Source: Candidatus Dormiibacterota bacterium (GTDB lineage Bacteria; Chloroflexota; Dormibacteria; Aeolococcales; Aeolococcaceae). Taken from it: a stretch of DNA of 64,000 nucleotides. Position 1 is the stretch's first letter, and each line of letters begins with the position of its first letter. The position numbers were made by a program, and so were the translations under genes. Where the stretch lies: contig DATBPD010000023.1 of assembly GCA_036561525.1 (NCBI GenBank), forward strand, positions 58,930 to 122,929, read 5' to 3'. Shown in pieces: positions 2,529 through 42,811 of the stretch. The notes beneath the pieces are model-generated. The model did not search any database. It had not been told where the DNA came from and saw only the letters and a list, made by a program, of their open reading frames with translations.

Positions 2529-4111
2529 GCAGCAGCGACTCGGGGGACGGGCAGGGGAACCCCACCACCGGCGCGGGTCGCGGCGTCGAGCCCGGCTGGG
2601 CCGGAGCTGAGGCGCTCGTCTTCGAGCTGAGCGACGATTACACGGGCAGCCCACGCCTCACCGCCGCCGGGGTGACCGCCAAGGGTCTCGCCGACCTGGT
2701 CCCTGCAGCCCACCTCCGGCGCGAGCCGCCGCCCGTGCCGGCGGTCCCCGAGCCGGTGCTCGCTCGCCATGTCGGCCGGCTGGCCCGCCGCAATCACCAC
2801 CTGCACCACGGCACCTACCCGCTGGGCAGCTGCACCATGAAATACAACCCGGTGGTCAACGAGCAACTGGCCGCGTTGGCCGGTTTTGCCGACCTCCATC
2901 CCTACCAGGACGAGGACGACGTGCAGGGCGCCCTCGAGCTGATGTGGCGCCTGGAGCGCATGCTGACCACGATCACCGGCATGGCGCGCATGTCGCTGCA
3001 ACCCGCGGCGGGCGCCCACGGTGAGTGGACCGGGCTGCGCATGATCCAGGCATTCCACGGGGAGGGCGGTGACAACAACCGCACCCGCGTGCTCATCCCC
3101 GACAGCGCTCACGGCACCAACCCGGCCTCCGCAGCATCGGTCGGGCTCGAGGTCGTCACCGTCAAGAGCAACCACGACGGCACTGTCGACATCGCCGATT
3201 TCGCCGGCCACCTCGATGATCGCGTCGCCGCGGTGATGATGACCAACCCCAACACGCTCGGGGTTTTCGAGAAGGACATCCTCGAGATCGCGCGGCTCGC
3301 CCACGACGCCGGCGCGTTGCTCTACTACGACGGCGCCAACCTCAACGCCCTGGTGGGCGTGGCCCGCCCGGGCGACATGGGCTTCGACGTCGTGCACCTC
3401 AACCTCCACAAGACGTTCTCGACGCCTCACGGCGGCGGCGGTCCCGGCGCCGGGCCGGTCGGGGTCGCAGAGCGACTGGTGCCGTTCCTGCCCGGGCCGA
3501 CCGTCGAACGCGACGGGGACCACTTCCGGCTGGACGATGACCATCCGCGCAGCATCGGCAAAGTGCGTTCCTACTACGGCAACTTCGGCATGCTGGTACG
3601 CGCCTTCGCGTACATCTGCGCGTACGGTGACGAGATCGCCGGCGTCGCGCAGGACGCGGTCCTCAACGCACGCTACCTGCAGGCCCGGCTGCGCGACCTC
3701 TTCCCGATGGCCGTGGCCTCGCCGTCGATGCACGAGTTCGTGTGCACGACGCGCGGCGGCAAGGTCGACGGCCTGCGCGCCATGGACATCGCCAAGCGAC
3801 TGCTCGACTACGGCATCTACGCCCCCACCGTCTACTTCCCCACGACTGTTCCCGAGGCGCTGATGTTCGAGCCCACCGAGACCGAGTCGCGGCAGAGCCT
3901 CGACCTCCTCGCCGACGTCTGCGCGGCGATCGTTGCCGAAGCCGAGAGCGACCTCGCCTTCGTCCAGGGGTCGCCGCACAACACCCCGGTGGAGCGCGTC
4001 GACGAGGTCGCGGCCGCGCGCCGGCCGGTGCTGCGGTGGACCGAATCATTGAAGCAGCAGGCGATCCAGCCTCAGGACGCCGACCTGCCATCGCGGCTGC
4101 CGACCGCCTGA
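2525..4111 (+). CDS. gcvPB: glycine dehydrogenase (decarboxylating) subunit 2
   Basis: The product has GSCTMKYNP and HLNLHKTFSTPHGGGGPGAGPVGV (PLP-lysine region). Start and stop are coupled to gcvPA. Confidence 0.9.
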   Translation: MSSSDSGDGQGNPTTGAGRGVEPGWAGAEALVFELSDDYTGSPRLTAAGVTAKGLADLVPAAHLRREPPPVPAVPEPVLARHVGRLARRNHHLHHGTYPLGSCTMKYNPVVNEQLAALAGFADLHPYQDEDDVQGALELMWRLERMLTTITGMARMSLQPAAGAHGEWTGLRMIQAFHGEGGDNNRTRVLIPDSAHGTNPASAASVGLEVVTVKSNHDGTVDIADFAGHLDDRVAAVMMTNPNTLGVFEKDILEIARLAHDAGALLYYDGANLNALVGVARPGDMGFDVVHLNLHKTFSTPHGGGGPGAGPVGVAERLVPFLPGPTVERDGDHFRLDDDHPRSIGKVRSYYGNFGMLVRAFAYICAYGDEIAGVAQDAVLNARYLQARLRDLFPMAVASPSMHEFVCTTRGGKVDGLRAMDIAKRLLDYGIYAPTVYFPTTVPEALMFEPTETESRQSLDLLADVCAAIVAEAESDLAFVQGSPHNTPVERVDEVAAARRPVLRWTESLKQQAIQPQDADLPSRLPTA

Positions 4112-6091: not shown

Positions 6092-7216
6092 ATGCGAGCT
6101 CCGCAGCTGGCGATCCTCGCCTCCGTCACCGCGCTGGCCGCCTGCGGACCGGTGACCGCCGGCCCCGTCCCGACGGCAAGTCCGGCGGCTCACACGACGT
6201 CGGCAGCGCCCAGCGTGACCACGGCGCCGCCGACACCCGCACCCCTGCCGCCGCTGGCCGTTCTACAGAGCGACACTGCGCTGACCGCCGTCGACGACGG
6301 CGGCAAGGTGCAGTGGAGCCTCACACGTGCCGAGATGAACACGCTGCTGTCGGCAACGGCGCACGACGCCATCAGCGCGCGCGTCGCCGGCCCCAACGTC
6401 ATCCTGTCGGTTGTTCCGGCCGCGTCGACCACCAAGGGCAGGCTCGTGGTGCTCGACGGCACGGGGACATCGCTTGGTGCGAGCTCCTTCACGCCCAACA
6501 ACGCCGCTGACGATGTGTATGGGTCACCCAGCGGATCGGAGTGGGCATACAGCATTGACGACAGCCCCGCCTCCGCCACCCGCCATCACGGGAGGATCAT
6601 CGTCGCCGGCATCGGGACTGCCCCGCACACTGTGTTCTCGTGGGTCGCTCCCGCGGGCAGTGTCAACGAGCGTGTGGCCGGCTGGACCGACATGGGCATC
6701 GTCATGGAGCGCATCAGCCTGGAGGGATGCGGCGTCGGCTTCCATTCCGACGGAGCTTCCTTTCTCGTCGATCCTGTGGCCGGCACGCTGACCGACCTCT
6801 TCGTCGGCGGTGACCATTACGGCGATGCGCGCCATGGCGTGAAAGTCGCATTCGCCGCCCGGTCATCCTCGGCGGTGGTCGTGAAGGGCGTCCGCTTCGA
6901 CGAGGGTGGGACAGTCGTCGACAGCGTGTTCGTGAGTCCCGACGGCAGCCGAGTGGGCGTGGGGCGCGTCTCTGTCGTGGTGTGCGCCGGCAGCCCGACG
7001 TTGACGGTCAGCACCGAGCTCATCGACGTCTCCACAGCTGGTCACAGCGACATCACCGGTTGCGAGATCAGCGGCTGGTTCGACGCCGGCGATTTCGTCT
7101 GCAGCCCCCAGGACAGCACCAGCTCGACGCCAACGCAGAGGACCGAGGATGTCGCGGGCCACGCCGGCACCGTCCTCGGGCTCGGGCGCTTGGCGGGAGT
7201 CCTGTCGAGCGCCTGA
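6092..7216 (+). CDS. lipoprotein, hypothetical
   Basis: An internal ATG at 6092 is preceded by GGAG. The product starts with signal peptide MRAPQLAILASVTALAACG (lipobox) and is Ala/Thr/Ser-rich. Confidence 0.6.
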   Translation: MRAPQLAILASVTALAACGPVTAGPVPTASPAAHTTSAAPSVTTAPPTPAPLPPLAVLQSDTALTAVDDGGKVQWSLTRAEMNTLLSATAHDAISARVAGPNVILSVVPAASTTKGRLVVLDGTGTSLGASSFTPNNAADDVYGSPSGSEWAYSIDDSPASATRHHGRIIVAGIGTAPHTVFSWVAPAGSVNERVAGWTDMGIVMERISLEGCGVGFHSDGASFLVDPVAGTLTDLFVGGDHYGDARHGVKVAFAARSSSAVVVKGVRFDEGGTVVDSVFVSPDGSRVGVGRVSVVVCAGSPTLTVSTELIDVSTAGHSDITGCEISGWFDAGDFVCSPQDSTSSTPTQRTEDVAGHAGTVLGLGRLAGVLSSA

Positions 7217-7227
7217 CCCCGACGCTC

Positions 7228-8370
7228 TCAGAGCCCCAGCGCCGTCTTGGCGATGATCTCCTTCATCACCTCGTCGGTGCCGGCCCCGATGCGGATCAGA
7301 CGCGAGTCCCTGAAGTAGCGCGAGATGTGCGACTCGGCCATGAAGCCGAAGCCGCCGTGCAGCTGAAGGCAGGTGTCGGCCACGCGCGAAGTCACCTGGC
7401 CGACAAAGAGCTTGGCCATGGAGATCTCTGCCACCGGGTACTCGCCGTTGTTCCAACGCTCGGCGACGGCGTACACGTAGTTCTTGGCGATGCTGATGTC
7501 CGTGTAGAGGTCCACCAGCTTGTGCCGGTTGACCTGGAACCTGGCGATGGGCCGGCCGAACGCCTCACGCTCCTTGCACCAGCGCAGGGTCTCCTCGAAC
7601 ATCACCTCGGCGCCAGCGATGCTCCCCGCGCTGCCGATCAGCCGCTCACCCTGGAGCTCCCACATCAGGTGATAGAACCCCTGGCCCACCTCGCCGAGGA
7701 CCGCTGACTCGGGCACGTCGACGTCGCTGAACGACAGCTCGGCGGTGTCGCTGGCGTGCATGCCGAGCTTCTTGAGCTTGCGGCTCACCGCGAAACCGGG
7801 CGTCGCCTTGTCGACGAGGAACAGCGTGATGCCGTGCGCGCCCTCCTCCGCGGTGCCCGTCCGGGCGACCAGCAGGATGTAGTCGGCGCGCACGCCGTTG
7901 GTGATGTAGAGCTTGGCGCCGTTGATGCGCCAGCCACCGTTGTGGCGGACCGCGCGAGTGCGGACGGCGGCGACATCGCTGCCGGTGTCGGGCTCGGTGA
8001 TGCCGAGGCTGGCGATCTTCTCGCCGCGGATCGCCGGCACCAGGTAGCGCTGCTTCTGCTCCTCGGTGCCGAACTTGAGGATGGGCGGCGTGGCCATCTC
8101 CGCCTGTACGGAGATCGCCATCCCCACGCCACCCGAACCACAGCGAGCCATCTCCTCGGCCAGGACGATCGCGCTCCAGTAGTCGCCGCCCTGCCCCCCG
8201 TACTCCGGCGGGTAGCGCAGGCCGAGCAGGCCGAGCTCACCCATCCGCCTGAAGACGCTGTCGGGGAAGTGCTCAGCCGCCTCCCATTCGTCGGCGTGGG
8301 GGCGCAGCTCCTTGCTGACGAAGTCCCTGACGGTTTCGCGCAGCGCGTCGTGGTCGGCGGTGAACGGCAT
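7228..8370 (-). CDS. acyl-CoA dehydrogenase
   Basis: The product from MPFTADHDALRETVRDFV carries ACAD motifs GITEPDTGSDVAA and QLHGGFGFMAE. Confidence 0.9.
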   Translation of the reverse strand: MPFTADHDALRETVRDFVSKELRPHADEWEAAEHFPDSVFRRMGELGLLGLRYPPEYGGQGGDYWSAIVLAEEMARCGSGGVGMAISVQAEMATPPILKFGTEEQKQRYLVPAIRGEKIASLGITEPDTGSDVAAVRTRAVRHNGGWRINGAKLYITNGVRADYILLVARTGTAEEGAHGITLFLVDKATPGFAVSRKLKKLGMHASDTAELSFSDVDVPESAVLGEVGQGFYHLMWELQGERLIGSAGSIAGAEVMFEETLRWCKEREAFGRPIARFQVNRHKLVDLYTDISIAKNYVYAVAERWNNGEYPVAEISMAKLFVGQVTSRVADTCLQLHGGFGFMAESHISRYFRDSRLIRIGAGTDEVMKEIIAKTALGL

Positions 8371-13485: not shown

Positions 13486-14697
13486 GTGCAGTGGCCGCGG
13501 GCGATCATCCATATCGATCTCGACGCCTTCTACGCGTCGGTCGAGCAGCTGCGCCGGCCGGAGTTGCGCGGCCGGCCGGTGATCGTTGGCGGCGGTGGTG
13601 ACGACTACCGGCGCGGCGTGGTCAGCGCGGCGTCGTACGAGGCGCGGCGCTACGGCGTGCGCTCCGCGATGCCTTTGGGGCGCGCCCGCCGCCTCTGCCC
13701 GCATGCGGCGGTCCTGCCTGTCGATTTCGTCGCCTACCGCGCCGCCTCCCGCCAGGTGTTCGCGATTGCGCGCGACTTCACGCCTCAGCTCGAACCGGCG
13801 TCGCTGGACGAGGCCTACCTCGATGTTGGCGGCTCGATCGCGCGAATGGGACCGCCGGACCAGATGGCCGCCGAGCTCCGCGACCGTGTCGCCGATGAGT
13901 GTGGCCTCGACCTGTCGTGCGGAGTGGCCACGTGCAAGCTCGTCGCCAAGGTGGCGTCCGACCTGCGCAAGCCGCGCGGCTTCGTTGTGGTCCGGCCCGG
14001 CGACGAGGCCGCTTTCCTGGCGCAACTGCCGCTGCGCCGCCTGCCCGGGCTCGGGCCGGCGTCGGAGAAGGCGCTTGCCGGGCTGGGGTTGACCACTCTC
14101 GGTGAGCTGGCGGCATTCCCGCTGCAGACGCTGCGACGCCGCCTCGGCGAGCACGCCGCGTTGAGCCTGACTGAGCGCGCACGCGGCGTCGACCACAGCG
14201 AGGTGGTGCTCCCGACCCGGCCCAAGAGCGTGTCGCGCGAGGAGACCTTCTCGACCGACGTGTCCGACCGCGGCGAGCTGCACCGCCGCCTGCGCGAGTG
14301 CGCCGCCGATGTCGGGCGCCAGCTACGCCGCGGCGGCTGGACGGCGAAGACCGCCACGCTCAAGCTTCGCTACGCCGATTTCACCACGCTCACGCGCCAG
14401 CTCACCTGGCCCAGCCCGCAGCACGGTGACACGGTGCTGGCGGAGGCGGCGCTGCATCTCTTCGACGCCACCTGGGCCGGCACGCCGGTGCGGCTGCTTG
14501 GCATGGGCGTCAGCGGCATCATCGACACTGCCCAGCTCGACCTCTTCGAGACCGTCGGCTCGCCGCGCGACGAGCACCTCGACCAAACCCTCGACGTGCT
14601 CCGCGACCGCTTCGGCAAAGCCGCCCCGCACCGCGGTGCCGAGCCGGCGATGCGCGACCTCGACTTCCGTGGCGAGGACCTGCGCGACGGCGAGTGA
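13486..14697 (+). CDS. dinB: DNA polymerase IV (Y-family)
   Basis: The product from a GTG start has IHIDLDAFYASVEQ, SLDEAYLDV and a little-finger domain. Confidence 0.9.
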   Translation: MQWPRAIIHIDLDAFYASVEQLRRPELRGRPVIVGGGGDDYRRGVVSAASYEARRYGVRSAMPLGRARRLCPHAAVLPVDFVAYRAASRQVFAIARDFTPQLEPASLDEAYLDVGGSIARMGPPDQMAAELRDRVADECGLDLSCGVATCKLVAKVASDLRKPRGFVVVRPGDEAAFLAQLPLRRLPGLGPASEKALAGLGLTTLGELAAFPLQTLRRRLGEHAALSLTERARGVDHSEVVLPTRPKSVSREETFSTDVSDRGELHRRLRECAADVGRQLRRGGWTAKTATLKLRYADFTTLTRQLTWPSPQHGDTVLAEAALHLFDATWAGTPVRLLGMGVSGIIDTAQLDLFETVGSPRDEHLDQTLDVLRDRFGKAAPHRGAEPAMRDLDFRGEDLRDGE

Positions 14698-14704
14698 CGG
14701 CTGC

Positions 14705-14975
14705 TCAGACGTGCAGGAGCGACTTCACCAGCTGGATGACGAGCACGGCTCCGCCGCCTTTGACGAGCATGTCGACAAGGAAGCCCGAGCTCGACTCCTG
14801 GTGCTGCATCACCTTGTGCAGGCTGGACAGCGCCACGCCGGCCGGGATCAGGTACTCACCGGCAGTGAGCAGCGGGCTCGCAATCGTGTCCCAAACGTGC
14901 AATGTGTCTTTGCTCGGATCCACCTGGATGTCGGCGACAAGGTGGGCGAGCACGGTGACCACGAGGAGCATCGGA
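14705..14975 (-). CDS. small hypothetical protein (88 aa), convergent with dinB
   Basis: ATG at 14975 is preceded by GGGAG 8 nt upstream. GC3 is about 87% although the locus is AT-richer. The product reads MLLVVTVLAHLVADIQVDPS... with hydrophobic termini. Confidence 0.4.
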
Positions 14976-15362: not shown

Positions 15363-17003
15363 ATGCTGACGATCGCGTCGCGATTCCCCGTGAACATGCA
15401 CATGGTTCTGGACGCGTGCGGTGTCTTCGGCCTCGGGCTGGGTGGAATCTGCAGCTTCGTCACCGGAGCGGCGGACTGGTTCAGCCAAACGCTGGAGGTC
15501 ATCCAGAACCCATTCAAATGGCTGTACCACCACACGCTCGGCGCGCCCATCCCCCAGCACGCGGGTGACCCCGGCTGGGACGCGTGCCAGGCGGATTGGA
15601 GCCAGCCGACATGCCCGAAGCTCATCGACGAGCTCAAGCCCGGCAGCCTGACGCTGTCGAGCACCTGGCCGCGCCTGTACAGCTCATTGTCGGTGTCGGG
15701 CGTCTTCATCGCTGCGACGTGCTGCGTTGTCCGGGTGGTGCGTGGGGTCTTCGACGAGCGCGTGGTGGGCGCGCACGTGGTGATCGACAACGTCGTCCGC
15801 ATGGTGGTCGCGACCGGCGTCCTGGTGGTGCCGACACCGGACAACTCATTGCTCCTCAACGCGCTGAGGCTCAGCACCCTGGCGTCCGGTCGCATCGCGG
15901 AGGCGAGCGCAGGCGCCGTCTCGTCAGCCTTCACTGCGAACCTCGATCTCAGCACAGTGGTGGGCAACATTGCGGCAACCGGCTTCGGGATCGCCGGCAT
16001 CGGTGACTTCCTGGTGGCGATCCCCATCCTGCTGGTCGCGGCCGCGTTCGTCTACGTGATGGCTCTGTACCTGCTGCGCATCATCCAGCTCATCTTCGCT
16101 GTGGCCACAGCGCCGCTGTTCGTCGCTCTGGCCGTGTACGACCACCGCAACCGGTTCCTGCAGTGGTGGCTCGACTTGTTCGCCTCGGCAATGTTGCTGC
16201 CCGTAGTTCTGGCCATCTGCGGGTCGCTGACGGCGGGCGTCGCCCTCTTCCTGCTCAACGGCAATCAAAACCAGCTCTCGCCAGGCGGCGCTGCGGAGTC
16301 GGTGACACGCACGCTGCTGGCCTGTTTTGCCGTGCTCGGCGGCGTCTGGATGACCGGCAAGGCGGTGCACGGCCTGGCCTGGCGACAGTTCAGCCACGGC
16401 GGGATCACCGGAGCCGCGACCGCTGTGTCGACCACGGTCATGGCGCTCCCCACCGCTGCCGGTGACGTCGCATCCCTGATGAGGGTCAGCGGCCGCACGC
16501 CGCGGCCAGGAGGTCTGCTCGAGACTCTGAGCCGCCCGGCAGGGCGCCGCGGTGCCACCGCGCCGACCCCAACGCGAGCGGCCGAGACGGGATCTGTCGT
16601 TGCCGCCGCAGCCGCTGGACACGCCGCGGCGGTGCTCGGCGAGAGCCCGGAGGTCGAGGCCGCGATGGAGGCGGCCGGCAGCGCGGACTTCAGCCGTCAT
16701 GGGTCGACGGCAGGCGTTCTTGATCAGCCGGCGATGAGAGTCGCATTCAACCAGGCCATTGGCGCGTCCATCGGGCGGTTCGCGACATCTGACGAGGGCC
16801 GGCTGGTGGTGGCGGAATCGACGCGGCATCTCGATGCCGCAGCCGCCGACCCCGCGGTGAGGGTGGCCGAGTACACCAGGGCGCTGGCGGACGATCCGCG
16901 CACCGGCAACGCGGTCGCCGGCCTGGCCTTCGCCAGCCTCCTTCACAACCAGGCACCGGACCTCGCGCCGATCCTGCGCAACCGCGCAGTCACCGCGGCA
17001 TGA
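15363..17003 (+). CDS. VirB6/TrbL-like polytopic membrane protein (T4SS/MPF-like)
   Basis: The 546-aa product has at least 6 TM helices (VVATGVLVVPT, FLVAIPILLVAAAFVYVMALYLL, LLPVVLAICGSLTAGVALFLL) and a hydrophilic Ala-rich C-terminus. Its stop overlaps the next start in an ATGA. Confidence 0.55.
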   Translation: MLTIASRFPVNMHMVLDACGVFGLGLGGICSFVTGAADWFSQTLEVIQNPFKWLYHHTLGAPIPQHAGDPGWDACQADWSQPTCPKLIDELKPGSLTLSSTWPRLYSSLSVSGVFIAATCCVVRVVRGVFDERVVGAHVVIDNVVRMVVATGVLVVPTPDNSLLLNALRLSTLASGRIAEASAGAVSSAFTANLDLSTVVGNIAATGFGIAGIGDFLVAIPILLVAAAFVYVMALYLLRIIQLIFAVATAPLFVALAVYDHRNRFLQWWLDLFASAMLLPVVLAICGSLTAGVALFLLNGNQNQLSPGGAAESVTRTLLACFAVLGGVWMTGKAVHGLAWRQFSHGGITGAATAVSTTVMALPTAAGDVASLMRVSGRTPRPGGLLETLSRPAGRRGATAPTPTRAAETGSVVAAAAAGHAAAVLGESPEVEAAMEAAGSADFSRHGSTAGVLDQPAMRVAFNQAIGASIGRFATSDEGRLVVAESTRHLDAAAADPAVRVAEYTRALADDPRTGNAVAGLAFASLLHNQAPDLAPILRNRAVTAA

Positions 17004-19645
17004 GCGCTGGGGGCGGGGCCATCCGCGTTCCGCTCGCCGTCGATGCGCAGTTCCGCCTCCCGGTCGGGCCGATGCTGCTCCCCGTCCGTTCGCTGGTGCT
17101 GGCGGCTCTGGCCGGCCCGCTCGCCTACGGGCTGCTCGCGATCGGGCTGCCCGGGCTGTGGGGTGCAGCGGGCGCCGGCTTCGTGCTGGCTTTGGCCGCC
17201 TCGCTCGGCTTGCCCGAGCGGCAGGGTGTGTGGCTCGGGACCCACGTCGCCTATCGCCACGCCTGGCGCATCATGCCCTCCACGGTCAGCCGCGGCCAGG
17301 CAGCACGCGCCCGTGTCCGTGCCCTGCGCGGCGCGGTTCACGTCACCGGCGAACGGCCGGCGGTCAGTCCGTCGAGGTGGGTTCCGCGCCGTCTCCGCAC
17401 CTTCCTGGTGGTGCCGGCGACCTCGACCGATGCAGCGGGAATACTGCGCCTGGACCCCGGTGGCGACCGCGCGGTGCTCATGCTCGAGGGCCCCGCTGTC
17501 AGTGTCGCAGGCGACGGGTACCTCGAATGGTGCCGCGCCGCGGTCCGCTGGATCGGGTCTCTGGACTGCCCGGCTCAGTTCATCACCCTGATGACCCACC
17601 ACGACGCCCGCCGCGTCGGCGAGGCCTTCGACCGTCGCGTCGCCGCCTGGCCGCGCACTCCGCTCTACGAGCTCGAGCGCGGGTTGGCAGGAACACTGGC
17701 GCAGACGACGCTCGGGCTGCGGCACTACGTGGTCCTTGCACCCGGTTCGGCGGGCGCCGACGGGGTGCCGCACCGCAGCACTCCATGGCGCGCCGGCGAT
17801 GCGCGCGACACCACGCACGACCAGGCTGATCGCGCTCTCCAGTCTGCGCTGCGGATGGCACCCGGCTTCGCCATCGAGGTTCGCGCGGCCGACCGCGACG
17901 ACATCGCTGCACTGCTGGCGCACACCGCGCTGGGGGCGTCGCGGGCGATGGTGGGGGAGGATGTGCTGCGGGTCGGCGACCGCCATCATGTCGTGCTGAC
18001 GACCACGCAGCTGCCCGCGATCATCGAGGTGGGGGCGGTCGTCGAAGCCATGACCCGGGCTCACGCCGTCGGAGTTGCCAGCCTGCATCTCCTGCCGGTC
18101 AGCACCGCCGTTGCCCAGAAGTACCTCCATCGTCGCTCGGCGATGCTCGACTACGTGCGCCGCCGGGGGGCTGATCCCGTGGAAGCCGAGGTGGCCCTGC
18201 AGGAGACCACCGACGTCGTGGCGGCTCTCGCACAGCGCGACATCGTTCCGTGGCGCGTCGCCCTCACCGTGTGCGTTGCGGACCGGGAGCGAGCCAGGAC
18301 GCTGGAGGCGGCGGAACGACTGGGTGCCATCCTGGCGGCGCACGGCTTCCGGACAACTGAGGTGACCGGGCCGGGCCTTCTGCCGGCGCTCGCGCTCTCG
18401 CCGGGATGCGCGCCGCTTGCACGCAGCCTGATCTTGACATCCGACTCTGTTGTTGCGCGGATGCTGCCATGTCTGGGCACGCCGTTCGCCGACGTGTCGG
18501 CACCGCTCCTCGGCATCAACGTGCTCAACGGAACACCGGCGTACTTCTCCATCTGGAGCCAGCCGAACCACAACCTCGTCGTGGTCGGCAGCTCGGGCGC
18601 CGGCAAGTCGATGGCGGCCAAGACGTTGCTGCTCCGCCACGTGATGGAGGGCGTCGCGGCGGTGGTCATCGACCCCGACTCCGAGTACGGCGCGGTGATG
18701 CATGCAGTCGGTGGGCGGTACCTCGACCTCGGCACCGAGGCGCTCAACTGTCTGGGCGTCGCCCCGGACGCGTCGGCCGACACCGCGGCGGGGCTGGTGC
18801 TGCCCATCCTCTCGGTCATGGCCGGCGATGACCGCGGAGTCCGCGAAGGCCGGCCAATACGCCGCCTTCCCGACGAGGACCAGGGCTGGCTGCACGGCGA
18901 GCTCGTCGACTTCTTCGCAGCACGGAAACGCGCCGGGGCAGCAGAGGCGCTGATGCGGGAACTCGTCGACTTTCTGCAGCGCACATCGTTGCCGCGCGCT
19001 CTCACCGACCGTGAGCGCGATCGATGTCGCGTCATCACCGCACGCTTGCGTCGCTTCACGCAGGGGATGCGCGCTGCGGTCTTCGACCGGCCGTCGACAT
19101 TCTCAGTCGACGCTGGCCCGATCGCGATCGGGCTCAAATCATTCGCGATGAACTATGGCGCGGACCTCACCCCGGCCTTGGCCGTTCTGCTCACGGCGAT
19201 CCTCGCGGCGCTCGGGAAACGGCGCGGCCGGATGATCGTGGTCGTCGACGAAGCCCACCGCATCACCTCCGACCCCGACGCCGGCGAGGTGCTCGGTCAG
19301 CTGGTGCGCCAGGCGCGCAAGCATGGCGCCGGTGTTTGGATGCTCTCCCAGCGCGTCGAGGACTTCGTGCGCACCGACCTCGGCCGCACGCTCGCCGCCA
19401 CCTCCGCGTCGAAGCTCGTCCTCGGCACCGAGGAGGCGGTGCTCGACGAGGTGCGCGAGGTCTTCAAGCTGCGCGGCGAGGAGCTGGCTGCGATCTGCCC
19501 GTCGAGCCCCGGGAGGGGGGTGCTGCTGGCCGGCGCTGAGCGGACTGTCGTTGACGTCGTGCCGGGACCGGCGATCATGGCGATTGCCGACACGCGTGCG
19601 ACGATGTCGCCTGCGCCGGCGGGTCGCAGCGCCAACGTGGCGTAG
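17000..19645 (+). CDS. VirB3-VirB4-like conjugation/T4SS ATPase (TraC/TrbE/ConE family)
   Basis: The 881-aa product has two N-terminal TM helices (VirB3-like), Walker A NLVVVGSSGAGKS, Walker B MIVVVDEAHR, and a size typical of VirB4. Confidence 0.6.
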   Translation: MSAGGGAIRVPLAVDAQFRLPVGPMLLPVRSLVLAALAGPLAYGLLAIGLPGLWGAAGAGFVLALAASLGLPERQGVWLGTHVAYRHAWRIMPSTVSRGQAARARVRALRGAVHVTGERPAVSPSRWVPRRLRTFLVVPATSTDAAGILRLDPGGDRAVLMLEGPAVSVAGDGYLEWCRAAVRWIGSLDCPAQFITLMTHHDARRVGEAFDRRVAAWPRTPLYELERGLAGTLAQTTLGLRHYVVLAPGSAGADGVPHRSTPWRAGDARDTTHDQADRALQSALRMAPGFAIEVRAADRDDIAALLAHTALGASRAMVGEDVLRVGDRHHVVLTTTQLPAIIEVGAVVEAMTRAHAVGVASLHLLPVSTAVAQKYLHRRSAMLDYVRRRGADPVEAEVALQETTDVVAALAQRDIVPWRVALTVCVADRERARTLEAAERLGAILAAHGFRTTEVTGPGLLPALALSPGCAPLARSLILTSDSVVARMLPCLGTPFADVSAPLLGINVLNGTPAYFSIWSQPNHNLVVVGSSGAGKSMAAKTLLLRHVMEGVAAVVIDPDSEYGAVMHAVGGRYLDLGTEALNCLGVAPDASADTAAGLVLPILSVMAGDDRGVREGRPIRRLPDEDQGWLHGELVDFFAARKRAGAAEALMRELVDFLQRTSLPRALTDRERDRCRVITARLRRFTQGMRAAVFDRPSTFSVDAGPIAIGLKSFAMNYGADLTPALAVLLTAILAALGKRRGRMIVVVDEAHRITSDPDAGEVLGQLVRQARKHGAGVWMLSQRVEDFVRTDLGRTLAATSASKLVLGTEEAVLDEVREVFKLRGEELAAICPSSPGRGVLLAGAERTVVDVVPGPAIMAIADTRATMSPAPAGRSANVA

Positions 19646-39794: not shown

Positions 39795-39899
39795 CCGGCG
39801 ACGCTACCAGACGGCCTCCATCCGTCCGCGGTGAGTTGTCCCCAAACCGACGAACGCGTGTGACAGTTGCAACAAACCAACCCGAACCGGAGACCGACG

Positions 39900-40382
39900 A
39901 TGACCGAAACCACCGGCGCCAACCCAGGCGCGCACCGCGAGATCTTCCACCACGTCCCCCATCCGCGCATCGGTCAGCGTCAGCACGAGGGGCCGGCCAC
40001 GACGACCGCCGTCCAGGAGCGGCTCGGGTTCAATGGAAAGGTCGGCGTCCTCATCACCACCGTGGTGGGCACGATGTGGGCCGCATACATCTTCACCATC
40101 CTGGCGCTCATCAGCCTGCCCGGAGCCATCTCGAGCGGGAACACGGTGATCATCGTCGGCTGGATTGCGCAGACCTTCCTGCAGCTGGTTCTGTTGCCGA
40201 TCATCATCGTCGGTCAGAACGTGCAGTCCGCGGCCGCCGACAAGCGCTCGCAGCAGACCTACAGCGACGCCGAGGCGATCCTCGCCGAATGCCTGCAGCT
40301 CCAGGCCCACCTCCAGGCCCAGGACAAGGTGCTCGATGACCTGGTCACCCGCCTGGAGAAGGTCGCGCCACCCCGAGCGTGA
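39900..40382 (+). CDS. DUF1003-family membrane protein
   Basis: GGAG lies 8 nt upstream of the ATG. The product has two TM helices (GWIAQTFLQLVLLPIIIVGQN) and a C-terminal coiled coil. Confidence 0.65.
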   Translation: MTETTGANPGAHREIFHHVPHPRIGQRQHEGPATTTAVQERLGFNGKVGVLITTVVGTMWAAYIFTILALISLPGAISSGNTVIIVGWIAQTFLQLVLLPIIIVGQNVQSAAADKRSQQTYSDAEAILAECLQLQAHLQAQDKVLDDLVTRLEKVAPPRA

Positions 40383-40478
40383 GCTCGGGAGGCCCACGCC
40401 CCGGGATGGACGCTCGACGCTACGCCACCACCGATCCACCGGGACCGGCGACCGATGGCGGGTCCTTGATCGCGGCGA

Positions 40479-40928
40479 TCAGCCGGGCACAGCCACCTGC
40501 TGTCGACGCCGCGACTTGCCGCCGTCGCCGGCGCCTCCAGCGTCGCCGGGCTCGACGGCCACGGCCGCCTCCTCGTCGCCGCTCCTGGGCGCATGGTCGT
40601 CGGTCTGCGGCCGGTCGAGCAGCTTCATTGTCTCGGCGACGATCTCCGTGGTGTGCCGCCGCAGTCCGTCACTGCCGTCGTACTCTCGCGTGCGCAGCCG
40701 CCCCTCGATGTACACGCGCCGTCCCTCGACGCAGTAGCTGGCGCATATCTCCGCCAGCTTGCCGAAGGCGACCACGTGGTGGAACTCGGCGTGCTCCTGA
40801 CGGTTGCCCTCCGCGTCGCGCCACACCGAGTTGGTGGCGATGCGCATTCGGGTCAAGGTCGTGCTCGGCCCGGTTGTCGGCTCAGCGTCCCGGGTGAGAT
40901 TGCCTACAAGGATGACTCGGTTGATCAT
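40479..40928 (-). CDS. ssb: single-stranded DNA-binding protein
   Basis: The product has an OB-fold MINRVILVGNLTRDAEP and an acidic/Gly-rich tail. It is not in an rpsF-rpsR context. Confidence 0.85.
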   Translation of the reverse strand: MINRVILVGNLTRDAEPTTGPSTTLTRMRIATNSVWRDAEGNRQEHAEFHHVVAFGKLAEICASYCVEGRRVYIEGRLRTREYDGSDGLRRHTTEIVAETMKLLDRPQTDDHAPRSGDEEAAVAVEPGDAGGAGDGGKSRRRQQVAVPG

Positions 40929-40979
40929 TGCCAGGGTGCCTCCGTCTGGGTTGGTTGAGACTGGTCGTGTGGTCGGCTG

Positions 40980-41933
40980 TCAGGCGGGTTTGCGGGGCGC
41001 ATGCGACGCGTGGTGGGTCGGCAACAGCGCGCGTTTCGCGGATCGCTCGAGGGTGTGCAACATCGTGTGTGCCTTGCTCTCCAGGTGCGCGGACGTGTTC
41101 ATCGCGCCCGGTACCTTGAGCAGCAACCACAGCGTCGCCAGCGCGTACACGGTGCTGATCAACCCGCCGCTCGAGTCGAACTCGGTGGTGACCGCCACGC
41201 GCAGGATGATCAGCTGCACGGCCTGCATGAACACAGTCCCAAGGAACAGCCGCAGCCACGAGCGGGCGTGACTTCGCGTATCGGGAATGACGCTGAGCAG
41301 AGCCGCAAGCGGGGCGGTGACGATCAATACGTTGAGCAGCGCGGTGCGGATCACATATGCGAGGACCAGGATGGCCATGGCAGCGACGAGGGCTAACGCC
41401 ATCACACCCTGGAACAGGTCCTGGCCGGTGACCAGACCGGCGATGATCTGCGGCGACAGGCTCGCCGACCAGGGCAGGTTGTCGCCGTTCAACGGTCCCC
41501 CGAGAGACAGCGCCACGCTGCCCATCGCGTTGTTGAGGTCGACCGCCATCTGCATGAAAAGCAGCGAGCCATGCGCCAGCACGACCGCGAGGAGGATCCG
41601 CGGGATGATCACCTTGAGGTCGTATCGCGACCGCATGGTGTGCTCGAAGATGCTCCGCAACGACGTGAACAGGATCACCAGCGCGATCAGCACGTCGACG
41701 GCCACAGTGAGCCCGAGGTTGAGCTTGGCGAGATTGGGATTGCCGGTGATCGGTCGGTTGCCCGCGACAGTGGGGTCGACGGTGCGGAACAGGAAGCGGT
41801 CGAGCACACCCATCATGTCGACGCGCGCGACGGAGATGAAGTGGCCGAGCAGCCCGGTGATCGACTGAAGCAGGAACCCGATCGGGTCGGTCACGGCATG
41901 TCCGACGCCGGTGATGCCGTTGATGAGCCCCAC
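40980..41933 (-). CDS. VirB6/TrbL-like polytopic membrane protein (second copy)
   Basis: The product has 6 or more TM helices (VIIPRILLAVVLAHGSLLF, VMALALVAAMAILVLAYVI). A GTG start immediately follows the mini-pilin stop. Confidence 0.45.
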   Translation of the reverse strand: MGLINGITGVGHAVTDPIGFLLQSITGLLGHFISVARVDMMGVLDRFLFRTVDPTVAGNRPITGNPNLAKLNLGLTVAVDVLIALVILFTSLRSIFEHTMRSRYDLKVIIPRILLAVVLAHGSLLFMQMAVDLNNAMGSVALSLGGPLNGDNLPWSASLSPQIIAGLVTGQDLFQGVMALALVAAMAILVLAYVIRTALLNVLIVTAPLAALLSVIPDTRSHARSWLRLFLGTVFMQAVQLIILRVAVTTEFDSSGGLISTVYALATLWLLLKVPGAMNTSAHLESKAHTMLHTLERSAKRALLPTHHASHAPRKPA

Positions 41934-41934
41934 G

Positions 41935-42174
41935 TCAGTGCACGCCGCCGGGGATGCTGGAGATGATCGCGTGGGTGAGTGTCCCGGCCACCTCGACGCC
42001 GATGGTGCCGAAGACGATGCGCCCGATCCAGCGCTTTGCCTCCATGACGCTGCGCGGGTCGACCGCGACGATCTTGTACATGAACGCAACCAGGAAGGCC
42101 AGGGCGCCGATTGAGCCGATCAGACCCTGCGCGAGCAGGATCCAGTTGTCGACGAGACCCTTCAGCTCCGACAT
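41935..42174 (-). CDS. VirB2/TrbC-like mini-pilin (79 aa, two TM helices)
   Basis: GGAGG lies 6 nt upstream of the ATG. The product is MSELKGLVDNWILLAQGLIGSIGALAFLVAFMYKIV... Confidence 0.4.
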   Translation of the reverse strand: MSELKGLVDNWILLAQGLIGSIGALAFLVAFMYKIVAVDPRSVMEAKRWIGRIVFGTIGVEVAGTLTHAIISSIPGGVH

Positions 42175-42245
42175 GGGCGACCTCCGACACGCGATGGCGG
42201 TCGCCCCTCCGGCCGGCCGGTCCAGCGACCGGCTCGCTCCGCAGT

Positions 42246-42276
42246 CTACCTACACAGGATTGTGTATGTCAAGGCG
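42246..42276 (-). promoter_or_regulatory. conserved dyad-containing motif, copy 1 (minus-strand GCCTTGACATACACAATCCTGTGTAGGT), 88 nt upstream of the mini-pilin ATG
   Basis: Contains a TTGACA -35-like hexamer and an inverted repeat TACACA/TGTGTA. Its core TGACATACACAA(A)TC is identical to the copy at 45324-45354. Confidence 0.4.
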
Positions 42277-42811
42277 GGATGCGAGAGCAAAGGCCGATCG
42301 CAAAGGTTTCCACGGATCCACCGCCGATGGCAAGTGCCAGATCGTCCGTCGTCAGCCCGCCGGCCGCCTTGCGCCTGAAGTCGGGGAGATAGTCGCGCGT
42401 CAACCAAAAGCTGTCCACGAACCGAATGTCCCATTGGAACAGCACCACTCGCGAGCGGGCGACGCGGCGCATCTCCCGAAGTCCGGCGAGACGGTCCGTC
42501 CAGTGGTGGTCCGACAGCACTGCCATGGATGCGTCGAATGCCCCGTCAGCGAATGGCAGCTTCTCGGCTCTGGCCTGCAACACCGGCGCGGAGCCCGGTC
42601 GACGCTGCGCGATCATCACCGACGATGGTTCGACCGCTGTGACGTCACGATCGGCAGGCTCATACGACCCCGTGCCAGCGCCGACATTGATCACCGTGCG
42701 AGCGTTACCCAGTTCTCGGTGAATCGCTACAGCCAGCCGCGGGTCTTCGCTGCGACCGATGCCATATCCCTTTCCGATCCGGTCGTACAGGGCGCGGTCA
42801 TGCTCGGTCAC
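42269..42811 (-). CDS. class I SAM-dependent methyltransferase
   Basis: The product has the SAM motif VINVGAGTGS and a downstream LPFADGAFD. Confidence 0.75.
   Translation of the reverse strand: MTEHDRALYDRIGKGYGIGRSEDPRLAVAIHRELGNARTVINVGAGTGSYEPADRDVTAVEPSSVMIAQRRPGSAPVLQARAEKLPFADGAFDASMAVLSDHHWTDRLAGLREMRRVARSRVVLFQWDIRFVDSFWLTRDYLPDFRRKAAGGLTTDDLALAIGGGSVETFAIGLCSRIPP

Follow-up and report, generated by a model that had tools for sequence, protein, structure and literature searches.

A 64,000-nucleotide stretch of DNA assembled from a Candidatus Dormiibacterota bacterium (GenBank assembly GCA_036561525.1, contig DATBPD010000023.1; hereafter the window) carries two gene clusters whose products resemble components of type IV secretion systems (T4SSs). 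The cluster under study here, which we call locus 2, encodes on the minus strand a small pilin-like membrane protein of 79 amino acids (aa), a polytopic protein of the TrbL/VirB6 type (TrbL2) and a single-stranded DNA-binding protein (SSB). The first-pass annotation of this DNA had also described a separate operon, likened to mating-pair-formation (MPF) operons, with a second VirB6-like gene and a virB4; this operon, our locus 1, is real, lies 21 kb from the pilin-like gene and encodes a VirB4-like ATPase, the second VirB6-like protein (TrbL1), a small membrane protein (orf88) and an M23 peptidase (Table 1). The window is chromosomal DNA of Candidatus Dormibacterota. Homologues of all three locus 2 proteins come from metagenome-assembled genomes (MAGs) named Candidatus Dormibacteraeota or Dormibacteria, with a few older Chloroflexi labels, and in the NCBI taxonomy the class belongs to the phylum Candidatus Dormiibacterota.

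Table 1. Coordinates of the features of locus 2, locus 1 and the adjoining convergent gene (positions within the window)
Feature	Position	Strand	Remarks
Promoter-like site, TTGACA-18 nt-TAGACT	42243..42272	-	consensus match alone, scored 10 of 12
Structured 5' leader of the pilin-like gene, about 62 nt	42175..42236	-	hairpin 1, 42236-42214; hairpin 2, 42206-42175
79-aa leaderless helix-loop-helix membrane protein	41935..42174	-	VirB2/TrbC-pilin-like by transitive homology
TrbL2, 317-aa polytopic TrbL/VirB6-like protein	40980..41933	-	GTG start at 41933
ssb, 149 aa, canonical OB fold	40479..40928	-	GGAGG at 40943-40939; 51-base gap after TrbL2
orf88, 88-aa small membrane protein	14705..14971	-	start is Met60 of a 147-aa open reading frame
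TrbL1, 546-aa polytopic VirB6/TrbL-like protein	15363..17003	+	end overlaps the VirB4 start by 4 bases
VirB4-like ATPase, 881 aa	17000..19645	+	AAA_10, TraC-F-type and VirB4 models
M23 peptidase, 239 aa	19646..20365	+	Pfam Peptidase_M23, 5.3e-25
171-aa two-transmembrane protein, convergent with ssb	39867..40382	+	weak DUF1003 match, E 5e-4, below cut-off

A near-invariant 79-aa membrane protein

The first-pass annotation had singled out a 79-aa protein with two transmembrane (TM) segments and a strong ribosome-binding site, and this gene is present on the minus strand: its open reading frame (ORF) runs from an ATG at 42174-42172 to a TGA at 41937-41935, with a GGAGG (42185-42181) 6 bases before the start codon. 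A hydropathy scan found the two hydrophobic segments, at residues 12-30 and 53-71, and the AlphaFold model (pLDDT 77.6) places helices at residues 2-37 and 40-73, with a net basic loop between them (4 K/R versus 2 D/E). The protein therefore has the shape of the VirB2 type, namely a mature part of about 70 residues with two hydrophobic helices and a short basic loop. It is a real gene and no chance ORF, since 352 close homologues, nearly all exactly 79 aa long and 75-99% identical, occur across the phylum, and the ratio of nonsynonymous to synonymous substitution (dN/dS) against six orthologues is 0.06-0.30. Judged by sequence identity, it is far more conserved than its neighbour TrbL2: the small protein of locus L002 is 75% identical to that of the window versus 52% for TrbL2, and in L055 the figures are 59% and 34%.

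The proposal that this is a VirB2-like mini-pilin holds for the family and not for the window protein taken by itself. Because the window protein has no profile match and a relative, P0249, links the two families, the assignment passes through an intermediate sequence. This 109-aa protein matches the 79-aa family profile at 1.1e-23 with 59% identity and passes the Pfam TrbC/VirB2 gathering score (31.5 bits versus 27.9, profile positions 12-98 of 98), with further matches to T4SS_pilin (5.5e-4) and DUF4134 (1.9e-4). On its contig a TrbL_3 protein comes next and then the start of an M23-like gene, the same pilin-TrbL-hydrolase order as elsewhere. Three other members of the 79-aa family have weak T4SS_pilin matches, the close homologue P0239 reaches E 0.017 at best with that model, and a profile search with the family against 1.84 billion representative proteins returned 72 relatives and no more. 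These comparisons support a VirB2/TrbC-like assignment through an intermediate, from which polymerisation into a pilus is at most a prediction.

Just ten polar residues precede helix 1, so the window protein has no signal peptide, and the in-frame sequence upstream of its start is not hydrophobic; the cleavable N-terminal signal peptide expected of TrbC/VirB2 is thus not present in it. Some divergent family members do have a classical leader, which in P0249 ends ALA, directly before DATG. Two metagenome contigs (L072, 804-914; L101, 132-224) have, upstream of the intact pilin-like gene, a truncated extra copy of its 5' half; it may have been left by a duplication or an insertion, or may have arisen in assembly.

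TrbL2 and a tip-less SSB

A single base (C 41934) separates the stop codon of the 79-aa gene from the GTG of TrbL2, bearing out the position first given for a GTG-started TrbL/VirB6-like gene within 1 nucleotide of its neighbour. The length first given, 369 aa, has to be corrected to 317 aa. The longer reading takes the longest ORF, which opens at a TTG further upstream and overlaps the 79-aa gene; we take the GTG start as real because a 317-aa database protein (P0001) is 100% identical and the orthologues are 313-323 aa long. On profile evidence we accept the protein as a member of the VirB6/TrbL family, as had been proposed: TrbL_4 was matched by 26 of 26 diverse TrbL2 family members (best 3.5e-10) and TrbL by 14 of the 26, and in precomputed database annotation the identical protein and its homologues carry TrbL_3 and TrbL_4. 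(The Pfam families concerned are PF04610, PF19590 and PF19597 for TrbL/VirB6, and PF04956 (TrbC) and PF18895 (T4SS_pilin) for the pilin.) The window protein matches TrbL/VirB6 at 19.1 bits (E 1.2e-3) as well as NCBIfam models of VirB6-like proteins from Mycoplasma integrative and conjugative elements (ICEs). A stringent hydropathy scan gives it 4 TM segments, and inspection of the sequence about 6.

The SSB scores far above the cut-offs of its models (Pfam SSB, PF00436, 102.7 bits versus 26; TIGR00621, 112 bits versus 54), and its OB domain is 47% identical to that of E. coli SSB. Its gene stands outside the rpsF-ssb-rpsR context, as had been noted: on one side is TrbL2 and on the other a convergent membrane-protein gene, with neither rpsF nor rpsR adjoining. 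The orthologues are 61-100% identical, every one whose context was read lies directly after the pilin-TrbL2 pair, and the homologues among the matches listed, at least 120, are all orthologues. The tail, which ends ...KSRRRQQVAVPG, varies among orthologues, and the acidic DDxPF-type C-terminal tip that recruits partner proteins is found in none of 14 aligned orthologues, nor in the SSBs of deeper lineages, whose tails end for example in ...ALPAAS or ...AEPVTA. Because the tip is missing, a second, replicative SSB is likely to be encoded elsewhere in the genome; the 1.55 Mb of Dormibacterota DNA that we fetched contained no genes for S6, S18 or L9 and no second SSB.

The VirB4 operon

Besides its matches to AAA_10 (7.6e-12) and to the TraC-F-type model (1.3e-32), the locus 1 ATPase matches VirB4_plasma, CD1110 and VirB4_CagE at about 1e-18, and its closest solved structure is the VirB4 of the Firmicute Thermoanaerobacter (4AG5); PADLOC defence models gave generic HerA/mads8-type ATPase matches alone. 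Two hydrophobic segments at its N-terminus, at about residues 30-75 (window 17000-17230), may, to judge from their sequence, be a fused VirB3-like membrane anchor. TrbL1 matches the NCBIfam VirB6-like models from Mycoplasma ICEs at about 3e-5 and aligns with the TrbL2 family in hhalign at E 3.3e-4 over 183 columns. The M23 gene follows VirB4 in nearly all loci, and its product is likely to be the cell-wall hydrolase of the machine, in the role of VirB1.

The small membrane protein orf88 has a hydrophobic N-terminus followed by two conserved hydrophobic helices, which are near-invariant in proteins of 88-92 aa across genomes. It was read at first as a 147-aa ORF, which we dropped in favour of the C-terminal 88 codons. 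The gene stands beside TrbL1-VirB4 in about 40 of 45 species genomes, divergently oriented in the clade of the window, and co-directional and upstream of TrbL1 in a distant clade (the L020 copy is at 7970-8248). It has no Pfam match, and as hhalign found no similarity to the 79-aa family we do not call it a pilin; its architecture alone indicates that it could be a second pilin-like component, VirB2- or VirB3-like.

Three further observations concern the surroundings and variants of this operon. Throughout the clade of the window, a gene for a DinB-type translesion polymerase (13486-14697) adjoins the VirB4 operon, beside the divergent orf88. In the distant clade (about 25 loci, L021-L048; L020 14108-17132 and 19039-19899), a further cluster always follows orf88-TrbL1-VirB4-M23, consisting of a gene for a 235-aa protein, a T2SSE-family ATPase (CpaF-like, Pfam 4.9e-28), a membrane protein and, downstream, a ParA-like P-loop gene; by its gene content it looks like a Tad-type pilus cluster. 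A lineage of lower GC content (54-56%; L019, L023) has orf88 and a VirB4 at 53% identity, and in L019 a TrbL1-like gene lies about 3 kb downstream of VirB4 and not upstream of it, a rearranged variant of locus 1.

Gene order is conserved across Dormibacterota

A metagenome scan with the 79-aa family gave 80 loci of 554 confirmed matches, and wherever there was room downstream TrbL2 follows straight after the pilin-like gene. What comes after TrbL2 varies. In at least 13 loci, including lineages whose TrbL2 is just 39-42% identical to that of the window, an M23 gene and then ssb follow; in one clade a CHAP-type hydrolase takes the place between TrbL2 and ssb (L122, about 2590-3100; L125, about 7170-7680; L127, about 7150-7640); the clade of the window has ssb alone; and an L002-like clade of about 35 loci has M23 alone, with no ssb at the locus. 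The CHAP-type protein has a signal peptide and Cys/His motifs, and its matches to CHAP domains in the PDB are weak but consistent (1e-5 to 7e-3). A wall hydrolase, either CHAP-type or an M23 peptidase paralogous to that of locus 1, comes after TrbL2 in most lineages. Linkage to ssb spans at least four arrangements, several chromosomal contexts and lineages whose TrbL2 is 39-47% identical to that of the window. From these variants we conclude that the ancestral operon likely comprised pilin, VirB6-like protein, wall hydrolase and SSB, and that the hydrolase slot likely underwent a non-orthologous replacement of M23 by CHAP in one clade and was lost in the clade of the window.

The operon of locus 1 was found by genome scan in 45 species-level Dormibacterota genomes, with VirB4 identities of 45-87%. 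Its flanks, which are constant within each clade, hold DinB, acetyl-CoA synthetase and a sedolisin-like gene in the clade of the window, and the Tad-like cluster in the distant one. The split into two loci to which the first-pass annotation had drawn attention holds in every locus examined: none of VirB4, TrbL1 and orf88 lies within 6 kb of any of the 80 pilin loci, in the 45 genomes VirB4 has neither the pilin-like gene nor TrbL2 within 10 kb, and it is never found alongside TrbL2, within 6-10 kb, in 125 related loci. A 1.72-Mb contig carries both loci at the spacing seen in the window, about 21 kb. An OGDH gene is found at a distance of 2-15 kb from the pilin-like gene in at least 15 of the 80 loci, over a range of TrbL2 identity of 43-100%. 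This phylum-wide pattern of gene order and synteny indicates, as far as sequence comparison goes, vertical inheritance from an early Dormibacterota ancestor and not a mobile element.

Four contigs deposited as Saccharimonadales, Acidiferrales and Acidimicrobiia (L021, L043, L024, L044) carry a VirB4 operon of the Dormibacterota type. Three of the four also have the Tad-like neighbour, and their GC content is 64-70%, as in Dormibacterota loci; they are probably mis-binned or mislabelled MAG contigs.

That the two loci are never adjacent speaks for the possibility that they have nothing to do with each other, the pilin-like/VirB6-like pair and its hydrolase forming a non-transporting module for remodelling the envelope or wall, a membrane scaffold for the hydrolase that acts independently of VirB4. 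The 75-99% identity of the small protein is what one would expect of a core component of cell biology, and hydrolases are the most constant partners at these loci. We nevertheless regard such a module as quite improbable, since VirB4, its own VirB6 paralogue, a small membrane protein and a hydrolase are equally conserved in the same genomes, and since it leaves no role for the operonic SSB.

No sign of a mobile element in the window

The first-pass annotation had noted that plasmids and ICEs commonly carry an ssb among their cargo, and VirB4, VirB6-like, pilin-like and accessory ssb genes are indeed typical of conjugative elements. One feature of the composition also fits cargo from, or the remains of, a plasmid or an integrated conjugative element: at 40-48 kb the GC content dips to 0.65-0.68, versus about 0.70 in the rest of the window. 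The other evidence makes this the least likely of the alternatives and, in our estimation, highly improbable. At about 70% G+C the window is even in base composition and has no break, it contains no tRNA genes, and it has no match to Rfam families at either threshold. Pfam scans of the other window ORFs returned housekeeping families alone (for example glycine-cleavage P protein, acyl-CoA dehydrogenase, DinB, acetyl-CoA synthetase, hut genes, DsbH-like thioredoxin, sulfite reductase, siroheme and PAPS reductase genes, OGDH and Lpd), with no integrase, coupling protein or further large transfer-type ATPase among the ORFs scanned; nor does a further large ATPase recur in the flanks of the related loci examined. 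A relaxase or coupling protein was likewise not seen in the window ORFs or in the flanks that were read, where no relaxase- or mobilisation (MOB)-specific profiles were run. Housekeeping genes in deep synteny flank the loci, the same ones in distant relatives, and on this ground the cargo idea is unsupported; moreover, both loci recur throughout Dormibacterota, in every lineage sampled, their divergence keeps step with that of the housekeeping neighbours, and the pilin-like gene is under strong purifying selection.

A conserved promoter-like site and a structured leader

The spacer of the promoter-like site upstream of the 79-aa gene contains an inverted repeat, TACACAATCCTGTGTA (42266-42251), a 16-mer with a single occurrence in the window, and the promoter-like block is kept in most aligned orthologous upstream regions, distant lineages included. 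Below it lies the structured leader, for which RNAalifold on 8 lineages predicted 18 base pairs; 5 of these, for the most part in hairpin 1, show compensatory changes. The minimum free energy is -42.4 kcal/mol (z = -2.4). In hairpin 2 the ribosome-binding site GGAGG and the spacer as far as the ATG are paired with the arms, a predicted fold that suggests translational control of the pilin-like protein. Both the promoter-like site and the leader are conserved across deep lineages, and as the leader has no Rfam match at either threshold the two together may constitute an undescribed cis-regulatory element. The promoter regions of both loci lack an SOS/Cheo box (GAAC-N4-GTTC), and this motif shows no enrichment.

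The gene beyond ssb, for the 171-aa two-TM protein, follows ssb in seven of the related loci (L001, L049, L051, L054, L056, L058, L060) and other lineages do not have it. As it is conserved in this position only in the clade of the window, its membership of the system is doubtful.

A candidate domesticated T4SS

Taken together, the sequence comparisons describe the membrane core of a T4SS, made up of VirB4, two VirB6 paralogues, two small hairpin proteins (one of them VirB2-like) and M23/CHAP hydrolases, in a parts list that is free of outer-membrane core components. A chromosomal, vertically inherited VirB4 with VirB6-like and VirB2-like partners and no relaxase in sight is what characterises a domesticated T4SS. 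Of the marks of an MPF-FATA conjugative element, the VirB4 ATPase is present; a coupling protein, relaxase and integrase were not seen (again with no MOB-specific profiles run), and the distribution is phylum-wide, not patchy. We hold it highly probable that the system derives from a T4SS and has been inherited vertically, on the observed gene content, homology, phylum-wide conservation, synteny and SSB linkage. The more specific reading that we favour, to which we give somewhat better than even chances, is that the conserved loci 1 and 2 are the two halves of a T4SS of the monoderm, MPF-FATA-like type, which is chromosomal, inherited vertically and handles single-stranded DNA. Within it, we infer that the two loci form one machine, a step that we find rather probable; on whether DNA is the substrate our judgement is evenly balanced; and import as the direction of transport is put forward tentatively, as a doubtful element of the whole.

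Such a machine might work as follows. Locus 2 would be an operon with its own promoter-like site and structured leader, the hydrolases would open the cell wall locally, and the two VirB6-like proteins would form the membrane translocon, powered by VirB4. The 79-aa protein would insert with both termini outside (N-out/C-out) and polymerise into a short conduit or pilus, and the substrate would be single-stranded DNA, coated on the cytoplasmic side by the dedicated SSB. It is the persistent operonic, tip-less SSB, the sole pointer to the substrate, that suggests single-stranded DNA, and because no relaxase or coupling protein was seen in the sequence examined we favour DNA import or cell-to-cell exchange of chromosomal DNA, in analogy to the archaeal Ced/Ted systems and to ComB, over conjugative export. 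We settle on a domesticated T4SS that translocates single-stranded DNA, probably for import or for exchange between cells.

Some T4SSs are known to deliver effectors, protein delivery or cell contact has been proposed for the system of Patescibacteria, and the apparatus might instead be a relaxase-independent T4SS for protein delivery or cell contact, no DNA machine at all, with SSB as an unrelated passenger of the operon. A chromosomal, phylum-wide system with no relaxase or coupling protein seen nearby would fit this as well, being the profile reported for Patescibacteria (PMC12102498), and one large clade has no ssb at the locus. We think this account unlikely, for the linkage to SSB survives across deep lineages and through the replacement of the hydrolase, and no candidate effector or immunity genes recur beside either locus. 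Dormibacterota are, besides, regarded as free-living soil bacteria and not as epibionts.

Several observations also weigh against the single-stranded-DNA machine that we favour. Some concern its parts. The window 79-aa protein has no Pfam or NCBIfam match at E <= 0.1 and falls short of the curated TrbC threshold; its near-invariance is unusual for an exposed pilin; profile searches with the 79-aa family, as with that of orf88, against PDB sequences gave zero matches; and a Foldseek search with its model against the PDB gave one insignificant match, a helical hairpin being too simple for this test. The two VirB6-like assignments sit near or under their thresholds: the window TrbL2 scores 26.2 bits with TrbL_4 against a cut-off of 27 (E 6e-6), just under it, and its AlphaFold model (pLDDT 52.9) is unusable, while the match of TrbL1 to Pfam TrbL is sub-threshold (E 7e-4), though three of four further family members also match. 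Others concern the whole. The link between the two loci is their co-occurrence alone, and because the inverted repeat in the promoter of the pilin locus was not found at the VirB4 locus, the sequence gives no sign of co-regulation. The SSB, moreover, is missing from the locus in the L002-like clade, a coupling protein and relaxase could be encoded elsewhere in the genome, and the direction of transport is purely our own deduction.

Comparison with known systems

Dormibacterota are abundant, uncultured bacteria of soil and permafrost, with no genetic tools and a cell biology of which little is known, and a full-text literature search found no paper describing a T4SS in them. If the reading that we favour is correct, the two loci provide a concrete candidate route for the exchange or uptake of DNA in this phylum, and host-domesticated conjugation machines, such as Ced/Ted, ComB and the Patescibacteria system, extend to a free-living bacterial phylum. 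The system also offers an unusually clean minimal parts list, in which the hydrolases are interchangeable and the SSB is tip-less, and its near-invariant 79-aa protein is a handy marker and a target for structural work.

Among bacterial precedents, Helicobacter pylori ComB is a T4SS for DNA uptake that functions with no relaxase. It is likened here at the family level only; ComB is a diderm MPF-T system with VirB7-10. A counterpart for the SSB is the competence protein SsbB, known in Bacillus and Streptococcus; in Bacillus it is a second SSB whose C-terminal tail is reduced or absent and which is co-expressed with DNA-uptake genes. The tail-reduced second SSB is the point of likeness, and the difference is that SsbB is not encoded inside a T4SS operon, whereas the Dormibacterota SSB lies within a T4SS-like one.

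The archaeal Ced system is induced by DNA damage, type IV pili are linked to it, and cedB sits apart from the cedA genes. The DinB gene beside the VirB4 operon recalls this induction, although no SOS box is present here, and the Tad-like cluster of the distant clade might be linked to the machine in the way that type IV pili are to Ced. Ced and Ted are chromosomal, relaxase-less, domesticated DNA importers composed of a VirB4-like ATPase, a VirB6-like channel and a VirB2-like two-helix pilin (Nat Commun 2023, PMC9905601), and the CedA1 pilin is used without signal-peptide processing (PMC9905601), a parallel to the leaderless 79-aa protein. No sequence similarity between these systems and that of Dormibacterota is detectable, and they serve an archaeal S-layer envelope, in contrast to the peptidoglycan hydrolases and SSB found here; DNA import has been shown experimentally for Ced, whereas for Dormibacterota we infer it from the genes.

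The MPF-FATA systems (ICEBs1, pCF10, pIP501; PMC4027160) share with the Dormibacterota loci a VirB4, a polytopic VirB6-like protein, small two-TM proteins and M23/CHAP-type hydrolases, and neither the MPF-FATA systems of Firmicutes and Actinobacteria nor the Dormibacterota system has outer-membrane core components. MPF-FATA conjugative T4SSs belong to mobile elements that also encode a relaxase and a coupling protein, and they are reported to be without VirB2 pilins (PMC4027160); the Dormibacterota system, in contrast, is chromosomal and vertically inherited, with no coupling protein or relaxase seen and with a VirB2-like protein present.

The T4SS of Patescibacteria, or the candidate phyla radiation (CPR), is chromosomal, phylum-wide, MPF-FATA-related and mostly relaxase-less, with VirB4, VirB6, VirB3-like proteins and VirB2-like pilins (Microb Genom 2025, PMC12102498). 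The same study places Patescibacteria as sister to Chloroflexota and Dormibacterota, and Dormibacterota are not analysed in it (PMC12102498). Like the system described here, that of Patescibacteria is chromosomal and has VirB4 and VirB6, and its VirB2-like pilins were detected with the same Pfam families, PF04956 and PF18895 (PMC12102498). Unlike here, its components mostly cluster near virB4, often close to dnaA, its pilins are often in variable arrays averaging 25% identity, and ssb is not mentioned (PMC12102498). Dormibacterota, for their part, have two loci, each with a VirB6 paralogue; their pilin-like gene is single, ultra-conserved and for the most part leaderless, and the SSB encoded in its operon is tip-less. 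The favoured reading would bear on the origin of the Patescibacteria system. A bolder version, which we consider rather unlikely, is that the core genome of Dormibacterota carries a bacterial counterpart of Ced, with a leaderless, near-invariant VirB2-like conduit and its own SSB, that serves DNA import or exchange and shares its ancestry with the T4SS of Patescibacteria; if this were true, the apparatus would go back to the common ancestor of these Terrabacteria lineages, which would not each have acquired it by horizontal transfer.

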